From NCBI RefSeq assembly GCF_003334405.1, contig NZ_QOWM01000018.1: 64,000 bases of DNA; one strand, written 5' to 3'. Numbering within the stretch: the stretch's first letter is position 1; every line of letters starts with the position of its first letter. The translations under genes were made by a program, and so were the position numbers. A model generated the notes under the pieces. That model saw only the letters and a list, made by a program, of their open reading frames with translations, was not told the DNA's origin and did not search any database. The stretch comes from Escherichia coli. GTDB lineage: Bacteria; Pseudomonadota; Gammaproteobacteria; Enterobacterales; Enterobacteriaceae. This document shows, piece by piece, positions 2,355 through 9,389 of the stretch.

Positions 2355-3169
2355 AAGCACTCACCTCTCTCATTTTGCCAGTAATACTGCTTACTGGTTG
2401 TTCTTCTTCCCCCACCATCTCGCCAGGTGGTGTCAATACGCCACCACCTGACATTAATGCATGGCTTAAACCACGAAGTGAAAAGCCGGATAGTCTGTCA
2501 GAAACCCGCTGGAAAATGCTGACCGACGCGGGTAAAACGCTTGGATTTCGTGGTGGCAAGGCTCAGCGTTCATGGGAGCTGATTCAGGCACTCAACGCCC
2601 GGGAAAGCACACTTAATGCCTTATACGATTTCCGGCCACTGATTAGCCCGGAAGGCTGGCTACCACCGGTTATTGATGAAGCACAGGACGTTGCTCATAT
2701 CACGCCAGATCAAATCCGGACCTCTTCCCGGGTCTGGACCATCATTCGCCCTGAACGCTTTGTCAGCAATCCACCGGGCTGGCGTGACTGGCTTCTCCGG
2801 GGGCTTTCAACAACAGCCACTCCGGGTACAGAAGGCAGCGTCGTTCCAGAAGACAGCGTGCAACGAAAAGTGTGGGAAACCGCATTACGGCAGGGATGGC
2901 AGGAAGGAAGACAAAACGCCGACCTGACGCTTGAAGCCAACCAGAAAACCCTCACCCGTGATTACCGGGGCATGATGCTGTACTCACTTCTCTGGCGTCA
3001 GGGCATGATCACCCGTCCGGATGTTTCTGATCAAATGCAAACCGTTACAGGTGACGGGAAAAAACTGGTCACTGGAGATCGTGTTCGTCGCCTTAAAAAT
3101 CATGCGGAATTCAATCTTCAGAAATCTCACTGGCGTCCGCTTATAGGCACTGAAGGAGGCTCCCGATGA
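2351..3169 (+). CDS. traI: T4BSS lipoprotein TraI (DotC-like)
   Basis: Lipobox LLTGCSS; 272 aa; overlaps traH stop and traJ start. Confidence 0.65.
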   Translation: MKALTSLILPVILLTGCSSSPTISPGGVNTPPPDINAWLKPRSEKPDSLSETRWKMLTDAGKTLGFRGGKAQRSWELIQALNARESTLNALYDFRPLISPEGWLPPVIDEAQDVAHITPDQIRTSSRVWTIIRPERFVSNPPGWRDWLLRGLSTTATPGTEGSVVPEDSVQRKVWETALRQGWQEGRQNADLTLEANQKTLTRDYRGMMLYSLLWRQGMITRPDVSDQMQTVTGDGKKLVTGDRVRRLKNHAEFNLQKSHWRPLIGTEGGSR

Positions 3170-4314
3170 ATACTCCTGATGAGTTTGGTCTTTTTCCGTT
3201 TCAGCGTTTCACTGCAGATGAACTACGGCATTTCTTTGTCTGGTGTGCCGCACATAAAGTCAGTGATGTGGATCTGACCGGTGGGTCGCCCGTATCTGTC
3301 AGTCGCTTTGGCCGACGGGTGCGTTGTTCCAGTGCAACGTTACCAACCACACTCATGTCCTCCCTGATTGATGAACTGTTCGGTCGGGAAGTCATTCCCC
3401 GCGTTCTGGCAGGCAATCCGGTTGACAGGACGATACAGATTAACGGGGATGCATCCGGGCGCTATGGTCTTAAACGCGGAGAACGCATCCGGTTACGCTC
3501 TCACCTCATTCAGGGCACATCTGGTGCGGAGGAGAAAGCAATCTCAATAACCATGCGTGTCATCCCGACAGAAATACCGGACATTCTCTCCATGAATATT
3601 GAACCAGACCTGCTTGAAGCAATGGTCTGCAAAAGCGGTCTGGGATTTGTATGTGGTGAAACCGGGTCAGGAAAATCAACGCTGTGTTCAGCACTGTACC
3701 GTTACATTATGGACAATTTCCCCGACGCCAAAATCGTGACATATGAAGACCCGGTGGAATATATCCTGGGAAATGAAAACGATCTGCTCCCACCGCATCA
3801 GGCAGAAATCGGGCGTGATGTGGTCAGTTTTGCTGCCGGACTGCGTTCTGCTGTACGACGTAATCCCGAAATTATCGGTGTTGGTGAGATCAGGGATAAC
3901 GAAACCGCCGACGCAGCGGTACAGGCAGGCAACACCGGGCATTACTGCCTGAGCACCATGCATACGAAATCTCCTGGTGAAACGCTGGCACGTCTTCTTG
4001 GGCTGTTTCCCCCTGTCATCAGGGATTCGATGGCCTGGGCTGTCCTGTCACTGTTGCAGTTCATTCTGGTTCAGGTTCTGGTCAGAACAAATGACGGTGG
4101 TCGTAAAGCCGTCCGGGAATATATCGTCATTAACGATGAGCTTCGCGACAATCTTTCCGGAATGCCACATGCAGAGTGGGGGCATCACATTGATGCCATA
4201 ATCCGGCAGGAGAAGCGCCGTATCCGGGACCAGATTCTGGAAATGTATATCCGGAATGAAGTTGACCGAAGAGAAGCGATTCTTTTTATCCCACCAGGGG
4301 AGTTACGGTCATGA
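3166..4314 (+). CDS. traJ: T4BSS ATPase TraJ (DotB/PilT-like secretion NTPase)
   Basis: Walker A GETGSGKST; 382 aa; PilT/VirB11-like overall pattern. Confidence 0.85.
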   Translation: MNTPDEFGLFPFQRFTADELRHFFVWCAAHKVSDVDLTGGSPVSVSRFGRRVRCSSATLPTTLMSSLIDELFGREVIPRVLAGNPVDRTIQINGDASGRYGLKRGERIRLRSHLIQGTSGAEEKAISITMRVIPTEIPDILSMNIEPDLLEAMVCKSGLGFVCGETGSGKSTLCSALYRYIMDNFPDAKIVTYEDPVEYILGNENDLLPPHQAEIGRDVVSFAAGLRSAVRRNPEIIGVGEIRDNETADAAVQAGNTGHYCLSTMHTKSPGETLARLLGLFPPVIRDSMAWAVLSLLQFILVQVLVRTNDGGRKAVREYIVINDELRDNLSGMPHAEWGHHIDAIIRQEKRRIRDQILEMYIRNEVDRREAILFIPPGELRS

Positions 4315-4615: not shown

Positions 4616-5167
4616 ATGTCAGGTAAAAAAACTATCGTTACTCTGCTCCGGGTATCGCTACTGGCATGCCCGTTACTGTTCACGACACCATCGTTTGCAA
4701 TGATCGACACGCCATCCGTGAAGGTCGGCTTTTCTCCTGAAGGAAGCGCATCCGCTCTGGTGCTTGACACAATCAACAGTGCGGAAAGCTCCATCAGGAT
4801 GATGGCATATTCCTTCACCGACCCGGATGTAATGCATGCGCTGGCAAAAGCGAAAAAACGCGGAGTGGACGTCCGTATTGTTGTTGATGACAAGGGGAAT
4901 ACGAACCGGGCAAGTCAGGAAGCGATGAAATATATCAACCTGCTGGACATTCCTCTGCGGACTGTAGATGCCTTCCCCATCCATCACGACAAAGTCATCA
5001 TTGTTGACGGAAACACGGTTGAAACCGGCTCCTATAACTTCTCTCGTGCTGCTGCACGCAAGAATTCAGAGAATGTCGTTGTGCTCAAGAATATGCCGGA
5101 TGTAGCCGCACAATATCTTGAACACTGGCAGGATCGCTGGAATAAGGGTACAGACTGGAGACCCTGA
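4616..5167 (+). CDS. nuc: Secreted phospholipase-D-family endonuclease (Nuc-like)
   Basis: Start at ATG 4616 with GGAG SD (track ORF 4256..5167 is over-extended); signal peptide; HKD motif HHDKVIIVD followed by GSYNFS. Confidence 0.75.
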   Translation: MSGKKTIVTLLRVSLLACPLLFTTPSFAMIDTPSVKVGFSPEGSASALVLDTINSAESSIRMMAYSFTDPDVMHALAKAKKRGVDVRIVVDDKGNTNRASQEAMKYINLLDIPLRTVDAFPIHHDKVIIVDGNTVETGSYNFSRAAARKNSENVVVLKNMPDVAAQYLEHWQDRWNKGTDWRP

Positions 5168-5256
5168 CAAACATTTCTCCCCCGGTTTTCTATCCCCCCA
5201 GCCACCCCCGGCTTCCGGCGGTGGTTTTTTTCCGTCTTTTTTCAGGAGAAGCACTC

Positions 5257-8200
5257 ATGCCGTCTGTATCCCGCTACCGCACCTGGCTTGCCGTGCCTGC
5301 AGATGAAATAGAAGATCTCAAAAAAGCACATCCCCCGATGAACGGGCACACGCCCGTCATCTGGGACAAGGAGCACAAACTCTGGTTCGCCCGCCCGGGG
5401 GCAGACCTGTCCAGGCTGGACCGCTGGCTGCCCCGGCCACAGGACGTCTCCATGAACGGCAGTGATCCGGTCACCGAGTTTGCCCAGGTTCTGGAGAATG
5501 CCGGACTGGTTCTGAAAGAACTGCCGGTCATGGACGGGAAAATCCACCGTGTCCCGACCGCCGATGACAAAAAAGGACAAAAAAGTGGCGCATATCGCGG
5601 CTTCCTGGACGGCAGACCTGCCGGCTGGTACAGGGATTATCGCAGCGCGGATGATTCGCCGATCACCTGGACCTTCTCCGGCGGAGAACAGACAGATCCC
5701 CGCGCAAGACTCCACCTGAAAGCGCATTCAATGCAACGCAGGGAGGACGCGGAGCGGGAACTGAAAGCACAGTACAACCGACAGGCCGCGTATGCCCGCC
5801 GCTATGTCAACAAATGGCCGCAGGCCACAGCACATGAATACCTGACCCGGAAAGGCATTCAGGCTGCACCGGGGGTGCGGGTAAACAACAAAAATGAACT
5901 GGTTATTCCCTTCAGTAACCGTAACGGCGCGATACGCTCTTACCAGCGTATTCCGGTCACCGGGGGGAAAGATGCCCGCATCCTGATAGATTCGGAGAAA
6001 ACCGGTAACTGGTTTGCGCTGGGCACACCGCGCAACGGTCAGCCGGTACTGTTTGCCGAGGGCTATGCCACTGCGGCCTCCCTGCACGAAGCCACGGGCC
6101 TTCCGGTACTGATGACGGTGGATGGAGGCAACATGATTGCCGTTGCCGAAAATGCCCGGCAAAAGTGGACGCAAAGCCCCTTTATCTTCTGTGCCGACAA
6201 CGATCATGCAATCCGGGTTAACAAAGGTATCGTCAGTGCAACAAAAGCCGCAGAACTGACAGGAGGAACGGTCATCTTTCCTGCGTTCACCGATGCCGAA
6301 AAAGCGCAGGGACTGACCGATTTCAATGACCTGGACGCCAGCCGGGGACGGGCCGCTTTTCAGCATGTCATCAACGCCCAGTTAGAACATATCGGGGTTT
6401 CCACCCCCAACAGTAACACCCCGGAAATCCGGGAGGCACTGGTGATCGGCAACCTCGTTTTTACACCGGTCCACACTGAGGAAAAAACCATGACTCCGAC
6501 AGAATATCCTGAAACATCACCCGATACAGGGCACAGCCATGACCAGGGACCTTCTCTGCCGTCCGCCACGCAGCAGGAACAACCAGCTGCTTCCAGCAGT
6601 AACATTGCTGATGAAACACAGTCATTTACCAGTCACGCCACTGAAAATAACGGCAAAGATGAGCGGCACGCTGATAACGTTCAGGCGCAAACGGAAAGCT
6701 CTGTAGTTCAGGACTCCCCTGCAGAATCACCGGCGTCCCCGGAAAGTACAACGGCGTCTGCCCCTGATGAACCCGCTCATCCGGCGGAACCTCCGGAAAA
6801 AGTTGTCTCGGTGGCCACAGATAAAGACTGGCGTGAATTTGAAGCCGAACTGTCACAACCGGAAAAAAACGAGTCACAACAGGAATCCGGCACTTCACCT
6901 GAAATACCGGCCCCTGCTGCCGCCCCCGCATCCCCTGAAGACAGTCCCTCATCTGAAACCATGAATGAATCAGCCGAGCCATCACCTTCCCCTGATGCAG
7001 TCAAAGAGGAAATGACCGTGATGACGGAGCCTGATGACAAACAAAGCACCGGAATATCCCCGGATACTCCCCGGGAAGAGGCGGTCAGCCATGTAACTGA
7101 AGACATTCCCCTTCAGCCAGAACCGTTCCTTCCTGAGTCAGATGGCCCTGAAGAATACGAAGACTACAGCGCATATCAGGAGCTGATGAACAATGAAAAT
7201 CCTGAGCATCTGCAGGAAAACAGTGATATGCCGTCGCAACCGGACACAGGCCACGTTCAGGCAGATGAGTCAGAACTTCAGACCACAACAGATACTGCAG
7301 AACCGGCTGTCCGGGATGAACCCACTCCGCAGCAACCTGTTCAGAGCACATCACCTTCTGATAATACTTCTTCGTTTCTCGACAAAGCGCGTGGCCTTTT
7401 TACGCGTAAAAAAACGGATTCACAGGCGCATGAGAACAGTGATCCCACGCCCTCACAGGAAACCACGACGACCACACCGACACCTGACAGTATTGTCTAC
7501 GCCCCGGAACGTTCTGATGCACAGATATCGCTCAACATAGACGAAATTCTTAAAGAGCTTGACTGGGAAAAACGAGCAGACAGAACCGTCCTGTACAAAC
7601 TGGATGGCAAACCTGCCTTCATTGACCGGGTAAACCGGCTGGAAATGGTCAACGGTGCCAGCAATGACGATCGCAGCGTTCTGGCCGCACTTGCTGTGGC
7701 CACCAAATTTTATGGGGGCGTCATAGAGCTGACGGGCAGTGATGCCTTTAAGCAAAAAGCAATGCAGTTGATTATCGAGCACAACATCGATGTCCGGATG
7801 AAATTGCCAGATCAACGGGCTGAACTAGAAAAATTACGCAAGGAAATGGCTGTCAGTAAGGATGCTGTTGTCACCCATCAGCCAACACCGGAACTTAACC
7901 GGAATATCCCTGAACAACCGGCTGTCCCTGACCCCGTTCAGGAAAAAGAAGCCACACAATCCCCGGCGTCCCCTGCTGCCCCTGAAGCATCAACCGTCAG
8001 CACCGCTCCTGCATCATCACCGGCTGAACCAGGCAAAACGGCAGATGCAGCACCAGGTGAAGAACCTCCAGGAAAACTTCGCCCGGGAGAGAGCGTGACT
8101 GCCGTACTGCACAATTTTGGTCGTGCTGAATATGCACCCGGCAAAGGAGAAAGTTTCTTTGTTGAGCTTAAAAACCGCAGTGGCAGCAAACTCTACTGGG

Positions 8201-9024
8201 GGGAACAACTGGAAAGTCTGGTCAAAAACCATCAGAAAGGTGACGTGGTGACACTGACACTTCAGAACCGCGAACAATTCATCCTCCCGGGAGAGCAAAA
8301 AGCACGTTTCCGGAATAAGTGGTCCATGGAGTCAGTTACCAACGGGATCTCGGTATCACATGATAATCCGGATAAAGGTCAGCGTATTCAGGCGATTCCG
8401 GTCGAAACCTTTATGAAAGTGGCTGCGCAAATCAGCCAGGGATGGCCGGAAGAGATGAAAGCGTTACGTATGCCAGAAAACGTCGGCTCACATCTGTTTA
8501 TCGGTGAAGACCGACATCCGGTCTCCGCGCCACAGAACGCGAATCAGGTAACAGAAATAACCAGTGCAGCCCCTGACAAGCTGACACCTGTTCTGGGATC
8601 AGTGGATAAGGATACGCGTGAACTCAACCTGTTACTTGTCCAGAGTGCCGATGAACATCTGCAGGGTGTGGTCCGGCTGAACGGCACATTGTATCCGGCA
8701 CTGGCCACCCCATCGGCCGACAACAGTCAGCTGGTTATCAATGCGCTGACCGACAAAGGTTTACGCTTTGCAGGTTATGGTGAAGCGGTAAACCACGATG
8801 CTGACAGCACGAATCGCCCCGCACCGGAGCTTATGCAGTTTCATCTGAAAACCCGGGAAGAACCGCTTTTTGCTGCTGTCTACACGCCGGAAAAACAACC
8901 TGATGCGTTGTACCGGAACCTGGGCTTCGAGCAGACATGGCAGCAGTGGTCCAACAGCCAAAAGCCGGAGGACAGGCAGGAAAAAACTCTGCATCAGGAT
9001 CTCTCCCACAGCCCCGGCCGATGA
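5257..9024 (+). CDS. sogL: Conjugative DNA primase SogL (TOPRIM primase N-domain, ~370-aa acidic P/S/T-rich linker, C-terminal domain)
   Basis: ATG at 5257 preceded by AGGAGA gives 1255 codons; primase-like N-terminus; position between nuc and traL; possible in-frame internal start for SogS near 6490. Confidence 0.8.
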   Translation: MPSVSRYRTWLAVPADEIEDLKKAHPPMNGHTPVIWDKEHKLWFARPGADLSRLDRWLPRPQDVSMNGSDPVTEFAQVLENAGLVLKELPVMDGKIHRVPTADDKKGQKSGAYRGFLDGRPAGWYRDYRSADDSPITWTFSGGEQTDPRARLHLKAHSMQRREDAERELKAQYNRQAAYARRYVNKWPQATAHEYLTRKGIQAAPGVRVNNKNELVIPFSNRNGAIRSYQRIPVTGGKDARILIDSEKTGNWFALGTPRNGQPVLFAEGYATAASLHEATGLPVLMTVDGGNMIAVAENARQKWTQSPFIFCADNDHAIRVNKGIVSATKAAELTGGTVIFPAFTDAEKAQGLTDFNDLDASRGRAAFQHVINAQLEHIGVSTPNSNTPEIREALVIGNLVFTPVHTEEKTMTPTEYPETSPDTGHSHDQGPSLPSATQQEQPAASSSNIADETQSFTSHATENNGKDERHADNVQAQTESSVVQDSPAESPASPESTTASAPDEPAHPAEPPEKVVSVATDKDWREFEAELSQPEKNESQQESGTSPEIPAPAAAPASPEDSPSSETMNESAEPSPSPDAVKEEMTVMTEPDDKQSTGISPDTPREEAVSHVTEDIPLQPEPFLPESDGPEEYEDYSAYQELMNNENPEHLQENSDMPSQPDTGHVQADESELQTTTDTAEPAVRDEPTPQQPVQSTSPSDNTSSFLDKARGLFTRKKTDSQAHENSDPTPSQETTTTTPTPDSIVYAPERSDAQISLNIDEILKELDWEKRADRTVLYKLDGKPAFIDRVNRLEMVNGASNDDRSVLAALAVATKFYGGVIELTGSDAFKQKAMQLIIEHNIDVRMKLPDQRAELEKLRKEMAVSKDAVVTHQPTPELNRNIPEQPAVPDPVQEKEATQSPASPAAPEASTVSTAPASSPAEPGKTADAAPGEEPPGKLRPGESVTAVLHNFGRAEYAPGKGESFFVELKNRSGSKLYWGEQLESLVKNHQKGDVVTLTLQNREQFILPGEQKARFRNKWSMESVTNGISVSHDNPDKGQRIQAIPVETFMKVAAQISQGWPEEMKALRMPENVGSHLFIGEDRHPVSAPQNANQVTEITSAAPDKLTPVLGSVDKDTRELNLLLVQSADEHLQGVVRLNGTLYPALATPSADNSQLVINALTDKGLRFAGYGEAVNHDADSTNRPAPELMQFHLKTREEPLFAAVYTPEKQPDALYRNLGFEQTWQQWSNSQKPEDRQEKTLHQDLSHSPGR

Positions 9025-9041
9025 GCCGGTAAGGAAGCCAT

Positions 9042-9389
9042 ATGAACATGCATAAGTCTCTGGTTGCCGTGCTCGGCCTTATCCTGATTTCATCCACGGC
9101 AAGTGCTGCAACCTGTCGTGCGGGTAGCGCGGCACAGGCCGGTAGTAATACAGGATATGAGCGAGCACGTGCAGCTGCGGATGCATGGTCACAACGTGAA
9201 AACGATGTTTCCTCATCCCTGCAGTCCTGTCTGTCACGAATCAAAAAAATCAGCATAAACCTCCCCCAGTTCCCCAGCCTTGACGACATTCTGTCGCAGC
9301 TGGAAAACCAGGTCTGCGACGCGGTCGTGGACAAGGTGAATGAAAAGCTGCCGGGGAATATTGATCCCTGGAAGGACTACAACCTATGA
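9042..9389 (+). CDS. traL: Transfer protein TraL (secreted, signal peptide)
   Basis: Signal peptide; gene order and count between sogL and traU fit traL-traT (9 ORFs). Confidence 0.5.
   Translation: MNMHKSLVAVLGLILISSTASAATCRAGSAAQAGSNTGYERARAAADAWSQRENDVSSSLQSCLSRIKKISINLPQFPSLDDILSQLENQVCDAVVDKVNEKLPGNIDPWKDYNL

Follow-up and report, generated by a model that had tools for sequence, protein, structure and literature searches.

A sog gene of an IncI1-type conjugative plasmid with two in-frame starts and a long acidic, disordered linker that is probably a flexible tether

In the 64-kb window (the whole stretch of DNA that was analysed), we found a sog gene flanked by traJ/traK/nuc on one side and traL/traM on the other, in the same order as in pN270, ColIb-P9, and R64. 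The enclosing ORF spans 5221-9024 (+), and the annotated-type start is ATG 5257 (Table 1). SogL has the same length in R64 and ColIb-P9, from which it differs by 19 aa (98.5% identity) and 36 aa (97.1% identity), respectively, with no indels in either comparison. The gene had been named SogL in an earlier, sequence-only reading of this DNA, and the name is borne out by the gene order, by the DUF5710 and Toprim domains, the latter containing an EGYATA motif (residues 268-273, within Toprim_3), and by the 97-98.5% identity to ColIb-P9/R64. In addition, PHROG DNA primase families match residues ~69-389 (E 1e-57), and the N-terminal 399 aa have a pI of 9.1. The cluster that contains SogL at 90% identity has 10,386 members, and at least 80% of the sog gene is covered at 95-99% identity in 1318 plasmid records. 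Overall, the sog of this window is a textbook IncI1 component, internal start and linker included, and is already known.

Table 1. Features of the sog locus, in coordinates of the window.
Feature	Position	Strand	Extent or evidence
SogL Shine-Dalgarno AGGAG	5244..5248	+	8 nt before ATG 5257; direct sequence reading
sogL CDS	5257..9024	+	1255 aa plus stop
DUF5710 domain (SogL residues 8-59)	5278..5433	+	Pfam PF18974, E 1.1e-8
Toprim_3 primase catalytic domain (residues 266-365)	6052..6351	+	Pfam PF13362, E 7e-5
Internal Shine-Dalgarno GAGGA	6478..6482	+	7 nt before ATG 6490; same context in R64 and ColIb-P9
sogS CDS (predicted use)	6490..9024	+	In frame from Met412 (codon 412); 844 aa plus stop
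Acidic P/S/T-rich region, predicted intrinsically disordered (SogL 412-753, SogS 1-342)	6490..7515	+	Composition; pLDDT <50; dN/dS 0.30-0.43, vs 0.0-0.18 in most comparisons of folded domains
Motif 1, DKDWREFEAEL (residues 522-532), acidic amphipathic helix	6820..6852	+	Predicted helix; counterparts in relatives
Motif 2, EEYEDYSAYQELM (residues 632-644), core Y-x-A-[YM]-[QMA]	7150..7188	+	Recurrence in lineages
Motif 3, SFLDKARGLFTRKK (residues 706-719), only basic patch of the linker	7372..7413	+	Short predicted helix
Folded LPD7-containing domain (SogL ~756-869)	7522..7863	+	Pfam PF18821, E 4.8e-13, SogS 364-451; pLDDT 94-98
Second disordered linker (SogL ~871-936), shorter, P/A/S-rich, mildly acidic	7867..8064	+	pLDDT 41-46
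C-terminal beta-rich domain(s) (SogL ~946-1248)	8092..9000	+	

The sequence-only reading had also pointed to a Shine-Dalgarno-preceded in-frame ATG near 6490 as a candidate start of a SogS-like product. The ATG and its GAGGA, which is formed by the Glu-Glu codons 408-409, are as described, but the start is not a new candidate: ATG 6490 is the published SogS start, and its use in this plasmid is predicted. Published lengths are 1255 aa for SogL and 844 aa for SogS, the latter arising by initiation inside the sog frame (PMC6112013), and the re-annotation of pESBL places the SogS start at the same codon as ATG 6490 (PMC4288162). Across the family, Met or Val occupies the column of SogS Met1 in 26 of the 28 full-length representatives at no more than 50% identity, usually in an E-E/x-x-T-M context. 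Conservation was scored by aligned column rather than by counting every Met up to 75 residues from the junction, which is uninformative because ~78% would be expected by chance. AGGA or GGAG also lies 7-9 nt upstream of the start in the Leclercia, E. albertii, Klebsiella, and Yersinia homologues. It is worth noting that the GTG at codon 396 has a Shine-Dalgarno sequence, GGAGG, at a spacing of 5, a better match than that of ATG 6490, and it could give a minor product.

A search for a sigma-70-like promoter in 5000-9200 found none, and a promoter of its own for SogS was rejected on this ground. RNA structure governing the internal start was also rejected, as shuffled versions of 6430-6550 fold equally well (z -0.48). 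The arrangement that we propose is a single mRNA with two in-frame starts, ATG 5257 leading to SogL and ATG 6490 to SogS. SogL would consist, in order, of DUF5710 and the Toprim primase, the acidic disordered segment of ~340 aa, LPD7, a short P/A-rich linker, and the beta-rich C-terminal domain, and SogS would start where the disordered segment starts, with the N-terminal sequence MTPTEY, and have no primase. The calculated masses are 137.9 kDa for SogL and 92.3 kDa for SogS.

In SogL the acidic region forms the probable tether, and it accounts for the first ~40% of SogS. Residues 408-748 contain 73 D+E and 16 K+R, with 13.5% Glu, 12.9% P, 13.2% S, 10.9% T, and a pI of 4.05; over residues ~412-753, P/S/T make up 37% and hydrophobic residues are few. 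The linker as a whole (337 aa) has a net charge of -56 and a hydrophobic fraction of 0.13, and 41-aa sliding windows between residues ~420 and 690 range from -5 to -12 in net charge and from 0.05 to 0.22 in hydrophobic fraction. Among all 250-aa windows of the ORFs of 250 aa or longer (25 in the 64-kb window), none is more negative than the linker, at net -50; the mean is -4.6 (sd 12), and the next-best gene reaches -28. The same stretch has a P/S/T fraction of 0.34 (mean 0.19) and a hydrophobic fraction of 0.14 (mean 0.31). The earlier description of a strongly acidic, P/S/T-rich linker is thus confirmed for what is the most extreme stretch of the window. The linker is indeed long, although the length then given, about 370 residues, was slightly high, since we obtained 337 aa from Met412 to the LPD7 anchor and ~342 aa by pLDDT.

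Disorder, which had been suggested as a check, is also predicted. In an AlphaFold2 model based on a 48-sequence alignment, SogS residues 1-342 have pLDDT values of ~35-45, below 50 over the whole range, and include just two short helices. By its low hydrophobicity, high net charge, and low structural confidence in the model, the linker is a predicted intrinsically disordered region. Tandem Repeats Finder and a direct-repeat search gave nothing meaningful in 6300-7600, and a repeat origin of the low complexity was rejected, as the linker is without tandem repeats. A search for sequence homologues with solved structures found none, and the PHROG search with SogS gave no match.

The linker shows 8 substitutions relative to R64 and 13 relative to ColIb-P9, with no indels in either. 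Its length and composition are the same as in the reference Sog proteins, the very finding that the sequence-only reading had said would count against its proposal. Plasmid records that contain the linker DNA at no less than 95% identity number 1340, and 1327 of them carry a near-full 1011-nt segment. In a wider comparison, linker length was taken as the entire Toprim-to-LPD7 gap, because an upstream walk to a hydrophobic window stops at the motifs and underestimates it. This gap is net-negative in all 33 Toprim-LPD7 representatives and spans 104-723 aa; among the IncI1/K/Z/Salmonella variants the linker ranges from 171 to 467 aa, with D+E at 0.18-0.22, K+R at 0.04-0.08, and P/S/T at 0.32-0.40. 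The linkers are essentially unalignable between lineages, in contrast to flanking domains that are 60-80% identical, and their dN/dS is 0.30-0.51, compared with 0.0-0.19 in most comparisons of the folded N- and C-domains. A composition that is conserved while sequence and length diverge is the comparative pattern of a disordered region. The retention of negative charge throughout the family argues for selection on the segment, although it is not direct evidence of mechanism. In two natural IncI1 variants, P0003 (1143 aa) and P0004 (1087 aa), on 68- and 80-kb contigs, the linker is shorter by 112 or 168 aa, and motifs 2 and 3 are among the parts lost.

Three short conserved motifs are found in the linker. 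Motif 1 is the sole helix within the first 290 residues of the SogS model (pLDDT 63, vs ~40 in the flanks) and has counterparts in IncK/Z (DDWSAFAEDL) and in an E. albertii plasmid (AQDWQHFEEEM). Motif 2 occurs in 8 of 10 lineage linkers, vs 0.04 expected from composition-preserving shuffles, for a pattern that was defined post hoc; residue 636 inside it is D here and N in the reference Sog. The helix of motif 3 corresponds to SogS 296-304 in the AlphaFold2 model, and its counterparts are SLFSRLRRFLTG in K/Z and SFMEKARGFFSRR in the Salmonella lineage.

Beyond the linker, the LPD7 region weakly matches the C-terminal end of the NCBIfam TraI/MobA(P) relaxase model, below threshold, and residues 885-950, overlapping the second linker, contain 21% P and 20% A with a net charge of -6. 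In the AlphaFold2 model, Sog ends in a conserved folded domain with a short tail behind it. The fold of this domain matches mainly OB-fold ssDNA binders, an OB assignment that is weak, and the domain shares 45% identity with the C-terminus of a MobQ relaxase of 4-kb plasmids (for example NZ_CP145643.1). This relaxase has the Sog-like domain without an acidic linker, so the linker is dispensable for the use of that domain. TnSeq of pESBL scored the SogS part at 1.00, "required for transfer", and the whole of SogL at 0.26, "non-essential" (PMC4288162); these scores are silent on the linker itself, because insertions in the linker also remove the C-terminus and may have polar effects on traL and the genes after it.

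For ColIb-P9, SogL and SogS are known to be transferred to the recipient in conjugation (PMC8406263; PMC6112013). Sog export is cited as amounting to several hundred copies, independently of DNA (PMC8406263). The known route of both proteins is the Dot/Icm-like I1 transfer machine, and the export determinant more likely lies in the C-terminal modules common to Sog and relaxases. The acidic segment is probably a polyanionic, flexible tether, through which the basic primase head and the C-terminal module remain independent of each other. It may also compete intramolecularly for DNA-binding surfaces, as SSB-type acidic tails do, so that Sog would be soluble and DNA-free in the donor, and the three motifs would be docking sites for partners. 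Taken together, we consider it very probable that this is an ordinary sog of an IncI1-type conjugative plasmid, with two in-frame starts and an acidic segment that probably acts as such a tether.

The linker might, alternatively, be a passive spacer that is only long, soluble, and unfolded, with its acidity a by-product of avoiding aggregation or sticking to DNA and its motifs weakly constrained remnants. The lack of alignment between lineages with 60-80% identical flanks, the length range of 104-723 aa in the family and of 171 to 467 aa among close relatives, the IncL linker made of ten copies of a 45-nt repeat, the natural occurrence of deletion variants, and a dN/dS exceeding that of the folded domains are all consistent with this account. 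However, the dN/dS of 0.3-0.5 is still below 1, the net charge is negative in 33/33 representatives, the Y-x-A-[YM] motif is found in 8/10 lineages vs 0.04 expected, and the length is essentially fixed within IncI1 (near-full 1011 nt in 1327/1340 records), and we regard a purely passive role as rather doubtful. A more active role is also possible, if tentative: the segment might be a polyanionic, ssDNA-like leader of SogS that all Dot/Icm-like plasmid primases have kept, whose acidic-aromatic motifs (W/Y-x-x-F/Y-x-x-(x)-L, twice) and one basic helix would dock to the coupling complex (e.g., TrbA/DotM-like) or to recipient replication proteins, and which would cover the DNA-binding barrels of the C-terminus up to the time of delivery. 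The E-E-x-T-M junction seen across the family would in that case reflect an ancestral, obligatory two-product design, and the primase-less, linker-first form would be the main exported species.

It has also to be considered that the Glu-rich polyanion is itself an export signal recognised by the I1 coupling complex, for instance by TrbA, in the manner of the Legionella E-block. DotM binds low-pI, acidic, Glu-rich peptides, and its R64 homologue, TrbA, is 23% identical to it (PMC5802825); a type IVB system naturally transports Sog protein in high copy (PMC8406263); the linker is 13.5% Glu with a pI of 4.05; and SogS starts exactly with the acidic segment. By contrast, E-blocks lie within the last ~30 residues of effectors, and the Sog segment is internal (SogL 412-753 of 1255) or N-terminal. 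In addition, the Glu-rich-peptide-binding residues of DotM are poorly conserved outside Legionella, and Sog ends in a folded, highly conserved module that also occurs in the mobilisable-plasmid relaxase. The C-terminus is the likelier docking element because it is shared with a relaxase that has no acidic linker, and an export signal in the linker appears improbable. An Ocr- or ArdA-like role as a DNA mimic that counters restriction or other defences of the recipient would fit the high density of negative charge, the entry of Sog into the recipient before gene expression (PMC8406263), and the discussion of Sog, among transferred early-life-cycle components, with the polyvalent proteins of conjugative elements (PMC5512222). 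Known mimics, however, have a rigid fold on which carboxylates reproduce the geometry of B-DNA phosphates, and a linker that is predicted to be disordered, is not conserved in sequence, and matches no solved structure is very unlikely to be one of them. Finally, we give almost no credence to an origin of the composition outside the sog frame, be it an overlapping gene in another frame or strand or an artefact of sequencing or assembly. On both strands, several ORFs do overlap 6360-7540, but they are short (65-119 aa) and unannotated in every related record examined, and the linker shows no drop in dS of the sog frame (0.035-0.10, vs 0.01-0.04 in most flank comparisons); against an artefact, the same linker DNA is found in 1340 independent plasmid records.

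For the window itself the finding is of little importance, because sog is a textbook IncI1 component that does not depart from the references. Its wider interest is that few natural proteins leave through a conjugative type IVB system in hundreds of copies, as Sog does. The comparison offers targets for mutagenesis: the conserved internal start, the negative charge, the three motifs, and the C-terminal module common with small mobilisable-plasmid relaxases. Such targets could show how protein cargo is recruited by IncI-type plasmids, a major vehicle of ESBL genes.

[quoted passage not shown] Other primases of MPF_I (Dot/Icm-like) plasmids, here those of IncK/Z/B/O, IncL/M (Pri, annotated "TraC"), Yersinia pYR4, and Pseudomonas amygdali plasmids, are alike in having a Toprim domain, an acidic disordered gap, LPD7, a second linker, and a beta-rich C-terminus. 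They are also alike in an in-frame Met at the primase/linker junction, and a potential for two products (1070 and 689 aa) has been noted for pCTX-M3 Pri. They differ in the linker, which is unalignable and 104-723 aa long and which in IncL contains 10 x 45 nt tandem repeats, whereas IncI1 has none. The RP4 TraC primase is made as two in-frame products. TraC1/TraC2 of this IncP plasmid resemble Sog as a plasmid Toprim primase that is passed to recipients (PMC7213743; PMC5512222). TraC1 differs in that its Toprim domain is C-terminal and in that it carries a DUF1738/ArdC-like domain.

Legionella E-blocks are likewise Glu-rich, of low pI, unstructured, and part of type IVB substrates, and IncI1 plasmids have a DotM homologue, TrbA. 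However, E-blocks are ~20-30 residues at the extreme C-terminus, and the Sog linker, ~340 residues long, lies in the interior of SogL or at the N-terminus of SogS, outside the last ~30 residues. The linker also differs from Ocr/ArdA-type proteins, as the model predicts disorder in place of a rigid fold. Acidic C-terminal tails or disordered linkers are present in E. coli SSB, T7 gp2.5, and T4 gp32. The likeness to these SSB-type tails would lie in a disordered acidic segment joined to what seem, by a weak assignment from the model, to be OB-like beta-barrels, and the acidic-aromatic motifs of the Sog linker recall the SSB tip. By contrast, SSB-type tails are 10-60 aa long vs ~340 in Sog, and the Sog segment is N-terminal to the barrels rather than a C-terminal tip.

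The gene at 5257-9024 is sog, the primase gene of IncI1 conjugative plasmids (features in the table below). The gene order around it is that annotated in pN270, ColIb-P9 and R64, and the N-terminal 411 aa of its long product, SogL, match DNA primase families from phages and plasmids. Gene order, domain content, the primase match and a length shared with R64 and ColIb-P9 all agree with the assignment to SogL made in an earlier, sequence-only reading. The mechanical ORF call begins 12 codons earlier than the annotated ATG, at a GTG (5221) within a T-rich, terminator-like stretch (5221-5256; stem at 5220-5236, then a T run). The resulting N-terminal extension is probably not translated, since the good Shine-Dalgarno match belongs to ATG 5257.

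Features of sog, its product and its neighbours (nucleotide positions are those of the whole stretch)
Feature	Position	Strand	Detail
sog ORF, longest open frame	5221-9024	+	ORF call
sogL CDS	5257 (ATG) to 9024	+	1255 aa; AGGAG 8 nt upstream of ATG
traJ	3166-4314		upstream of sog, with traK and nuc
traL	9042		downstream of sog
traM	9386		downstream of sog, after traL
DUF5710	SogL residues 8-59		Pfam
Toprim_3	SogL residues 266-365		Pfam
LPD7	SogL residues 775-862		Pfam
Motif 1	SogL residues 522-532		DKDWREFEAEL; sole confident helix in first 290 model residues
Motif 2	SogL residues 632-644		EEYEDYSAYQELM; core Y-x-A-[YM]-[QMA]
Motif 3	SogL residues 706-719		SFLDKARGLFTRKK; sole basic patch of linker; short predicted helix

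From residue 412 to about 753, SogL is acidic and rich in P, S and T. Residues 408-748 contain 73 D+E and 16 K+R, with 12.9% P, 13.2% S and 10.9% T and a pI of 4.05; the pI of the primase part is 9.1. No other 250-aa window in the 25 long ORFs of the 64-kb window is as negative as the one in this linker (net -50 vs. a mean of -4.6 and -28 for the next gene), and the linker is far above average in P/S/T and far below in hydrophobic residues. The composition first noticed from the sequence thus stands, but the linker spans about 340 aa rather than the 370 originally estimated. Its supposed disorder is borne out by an AlphaFold2 model of the short product, SogS (48-sequence alignment), with a pLDDT of about 35-45 over SogS residues 1-342; values exceed 90 in LPD7 and are about 90 in the beta-rich C-terminal region. 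Tandem repeats were ruled out as the cause of the bias in this sog. LPD7 and the C-terminal domain are joined by a second, shorter disordered linker (7867-8064, SogL about 871-936; SogS 460-525, pLDDT about 42), which is P/A/S-rich, only mildly acidic and variable in length, and was found in all relatives examined.

The linker begins at an in-frame ATG (6490-6492, SogL codon 412) that leaves 844 aa and is preceded by GAGGA (6478-6482), a Shine-Dalgarno sequence made by Glu-Glu codons 408-409. The sequence-only reading had proposed a SogS-like start here, and this is the SogS start already published: sog is reported to encode SogL (1255 aa) and SogS (844 aa) by initiation inside the sog frame (PMC6112013), and pESBL has been re-annotated with SogS starting at this codon (PMC4288162). 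The nucleotide context is identical in R64 and ColIb-P9. No sigma-70-like promoter was detected anywhere in 5000-9200, and the RNA around ATG 6490 has no unusual structure; with the Glu-Glu Shine-Dalgarno, this fits the reported internal initiation, and both products are probably made from one sog mRNA. In a MAFFT alignment of 28 full-length family representatives, each at most 50% identical to the others, the column of SogS Met1 holds Met in 23 and Val in three, usually in the context E-E/x-x-T-M. In the homologues for which DNA was available (Leclercia, E. albertii, Klebsiella, Yersinia ruckeri), the aligned start follows AGGA or GGAG at a distance of 7-9 nt; within the IncK/Z lineage the start codon switches between ATG and GTG, and two-product potential has already been remarked for IncM Pri (PMC6112013). 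Sixteen codons before the SogS ATG, an in-frame GTG (6442-6444, SogL codon 396) is preceded by a stronger Shine-Dalgarno match (GGAGG, 6432-6436, spacing 5); this GTG recurs in IncK/Z and E. albertii homologues sharing the N-terminal module, is not kept family-wide, and is possibly a minor alternative start.

Across the family, charge rather than sequence is conserved in the linker. The domains on either side of it are about 60-80% identical between IncI1 and IncK/Z Sog, whereas the linker is essentially unalignable. In IncI1, IncK/Z and Salmonella-lineage variants its length ranges over 171-467 aa at near-constant composition (D+E 0.18-0.22, K+R 0.04-0.08, P/S/T 0.32-0.40, pI 4.05-4.2). Seven remoter Sog-like genes occupy the same place in MPF_I transfer operons of Leclercia, E. 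albertii, Klebsiella, Yersinia, Pseudomonas and IncL plasmids, adjoining traJ/icmT except on a P. amygdali plasmid, which has icmT as the sole upstream gene listed; in each of the seven proteins the gap is acidic and disordered and spans 164-354 aa. Likewise, all 33 Toprim-LPD7 representatives from a 1.8-billion-protein library carry a net negative charge between these two domains (gap median 248 aa, range 104-723). The IncL linker (OW849279.1, 2785-3232) is built from a 45-nt tandem repeat (15 aa, VASAPAAAEPEETAP-like) present in ten near-perfect copies, and several in-frame GTG codons of the repeat are preceded by GGAGG.

Three short motifs recur within this variable segment. Motif 1 has counterparts in IncK/Z (DDWSAFAEDL) and the E. 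albertii plasmid, and motif 3 is kept in the IncI1, IncK/Z and Salmonella lineages. Motif 2 extends to IncL (LEAYAAMMAF), Klebsiella (ESYEAMMAAE) and Yersinia (AEYAAYMQQE); its core occurs in 8/10 lineage linkers vs. 0.04 expected in shuffles, an optimistic statistic because the pattern was set post hoc. Short IncK/Z variants retain motifs 2 and 3 and have lost motif 1. Two singleton natural IncI1 variants, P0003 (1143 aa) and P0004 (1087 aa), have in-frame linker deletions of 112 and 168 aa, respectively, that remove motifs 2 and 3. Roughly 70-aa blocks are frequently gained or lost among IncK/Z proteins of 1150-1405 aa (P0017, P0076 and others; linkers 212-467 aa). The 50-aa deletion in P0002 (1205 aa) lies within the Toprim domain, not the linker.

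Selection on the linker is relaxed but still purifying, with dN/dS of 0.30-0.51 vs. 0.0-0.19 for the primase and C-terminal domains in most comparisons (two N-domain outliers are near 0.5). Compared with this sog (5257-9024), the LPD7 segment of ColIb-P9 has a dS of 0.28 vs. about 0.03 in its flanks, and the N-terminal domain of pN270 0.18 vs. 0.02 for the C-terminus; the protein of E. albertii pEA26_3 is IncI1-like up to the linker start and then diverges. This patchy synonymous divergence and the break at the linker start indicate recombination between sog modules, with the linker as a joint.

With the gene's identity, the position and conservation of its internal start and the disordered acidic segment established, a role for the linker may be proposed. 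It would be a flexible polyanionic tether joining the basic primase head to the C-terminal module; in SogS it makes up the N-terminal 40%. On the model of SSB-type acidic tails, it may compete for DNA-binding surfaces and, in the donor, keep Sog soluble and unbound to DNA, and the three motifs may serve as docking sites. Rigid DNA mimicry is unlikely because the linker is disordered and its sequence not conserved. A less probable alternative is that TrbA, a DotM homologue, recognises the Glu-rich linker itself as an export signal: DotM binds acidic Glu-rich peptides (PMC5802825), although E-block signals as known are short and C-terminal.

More probably, the export determinant lies in C-terminal modules common with relaxases, since a MobQ relaxase uses that domain without the acidic linker. 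The last Sog domain (8092-9000, SogL about 946-1248) is 45% identical to the MobQ C-terminus (E 6e-72), with much higher likeness over the final 130 or so residues, which suggests a common docking or DNA-binding module; LPD7 weakly matches a MobP-type relaxase C-terminus. The matching relaxases are on roughly 4-kb mobilisable E. coli plasmids (e.g., NZ_CP145643.1, 1762-2571), and such plasmids might hitch-hike on IncI transfer systems. In pESBL TnSeq, the SogS part scored 1.00 ("required for transfer") and SogL overall 0.26 ("non-essential") (PMC4288162), as would be expected if the primase head is dispensable and the C-terminal half essential, although insertions also truncate the protein and are possibly polar on downstream genes.

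The sequence-only reading had described the linker as very long. SogL is equal in length to its R64 and ColIb-P9 counterparts, with 19 and 36 substitutions, respectively, and no indels; the linker DNA (6490-7500) occurs at ≥95% identity in 1340 plasmid records, essentially at full length in 1327, and the 90%-identity cluster that includes SogL numbers 10,386 sequences. The linker is therefore that of the reference Sog proteins. The additions made here are modest: internal start, negative charge and the three motifs are conserved across the family, and Sog has a module in common with small-plasmid relaxases. The linker and its internal start are real but ordinary and already known, the SogL/SogS arrangement being unchanged from that of R64 and ColIb-P9.
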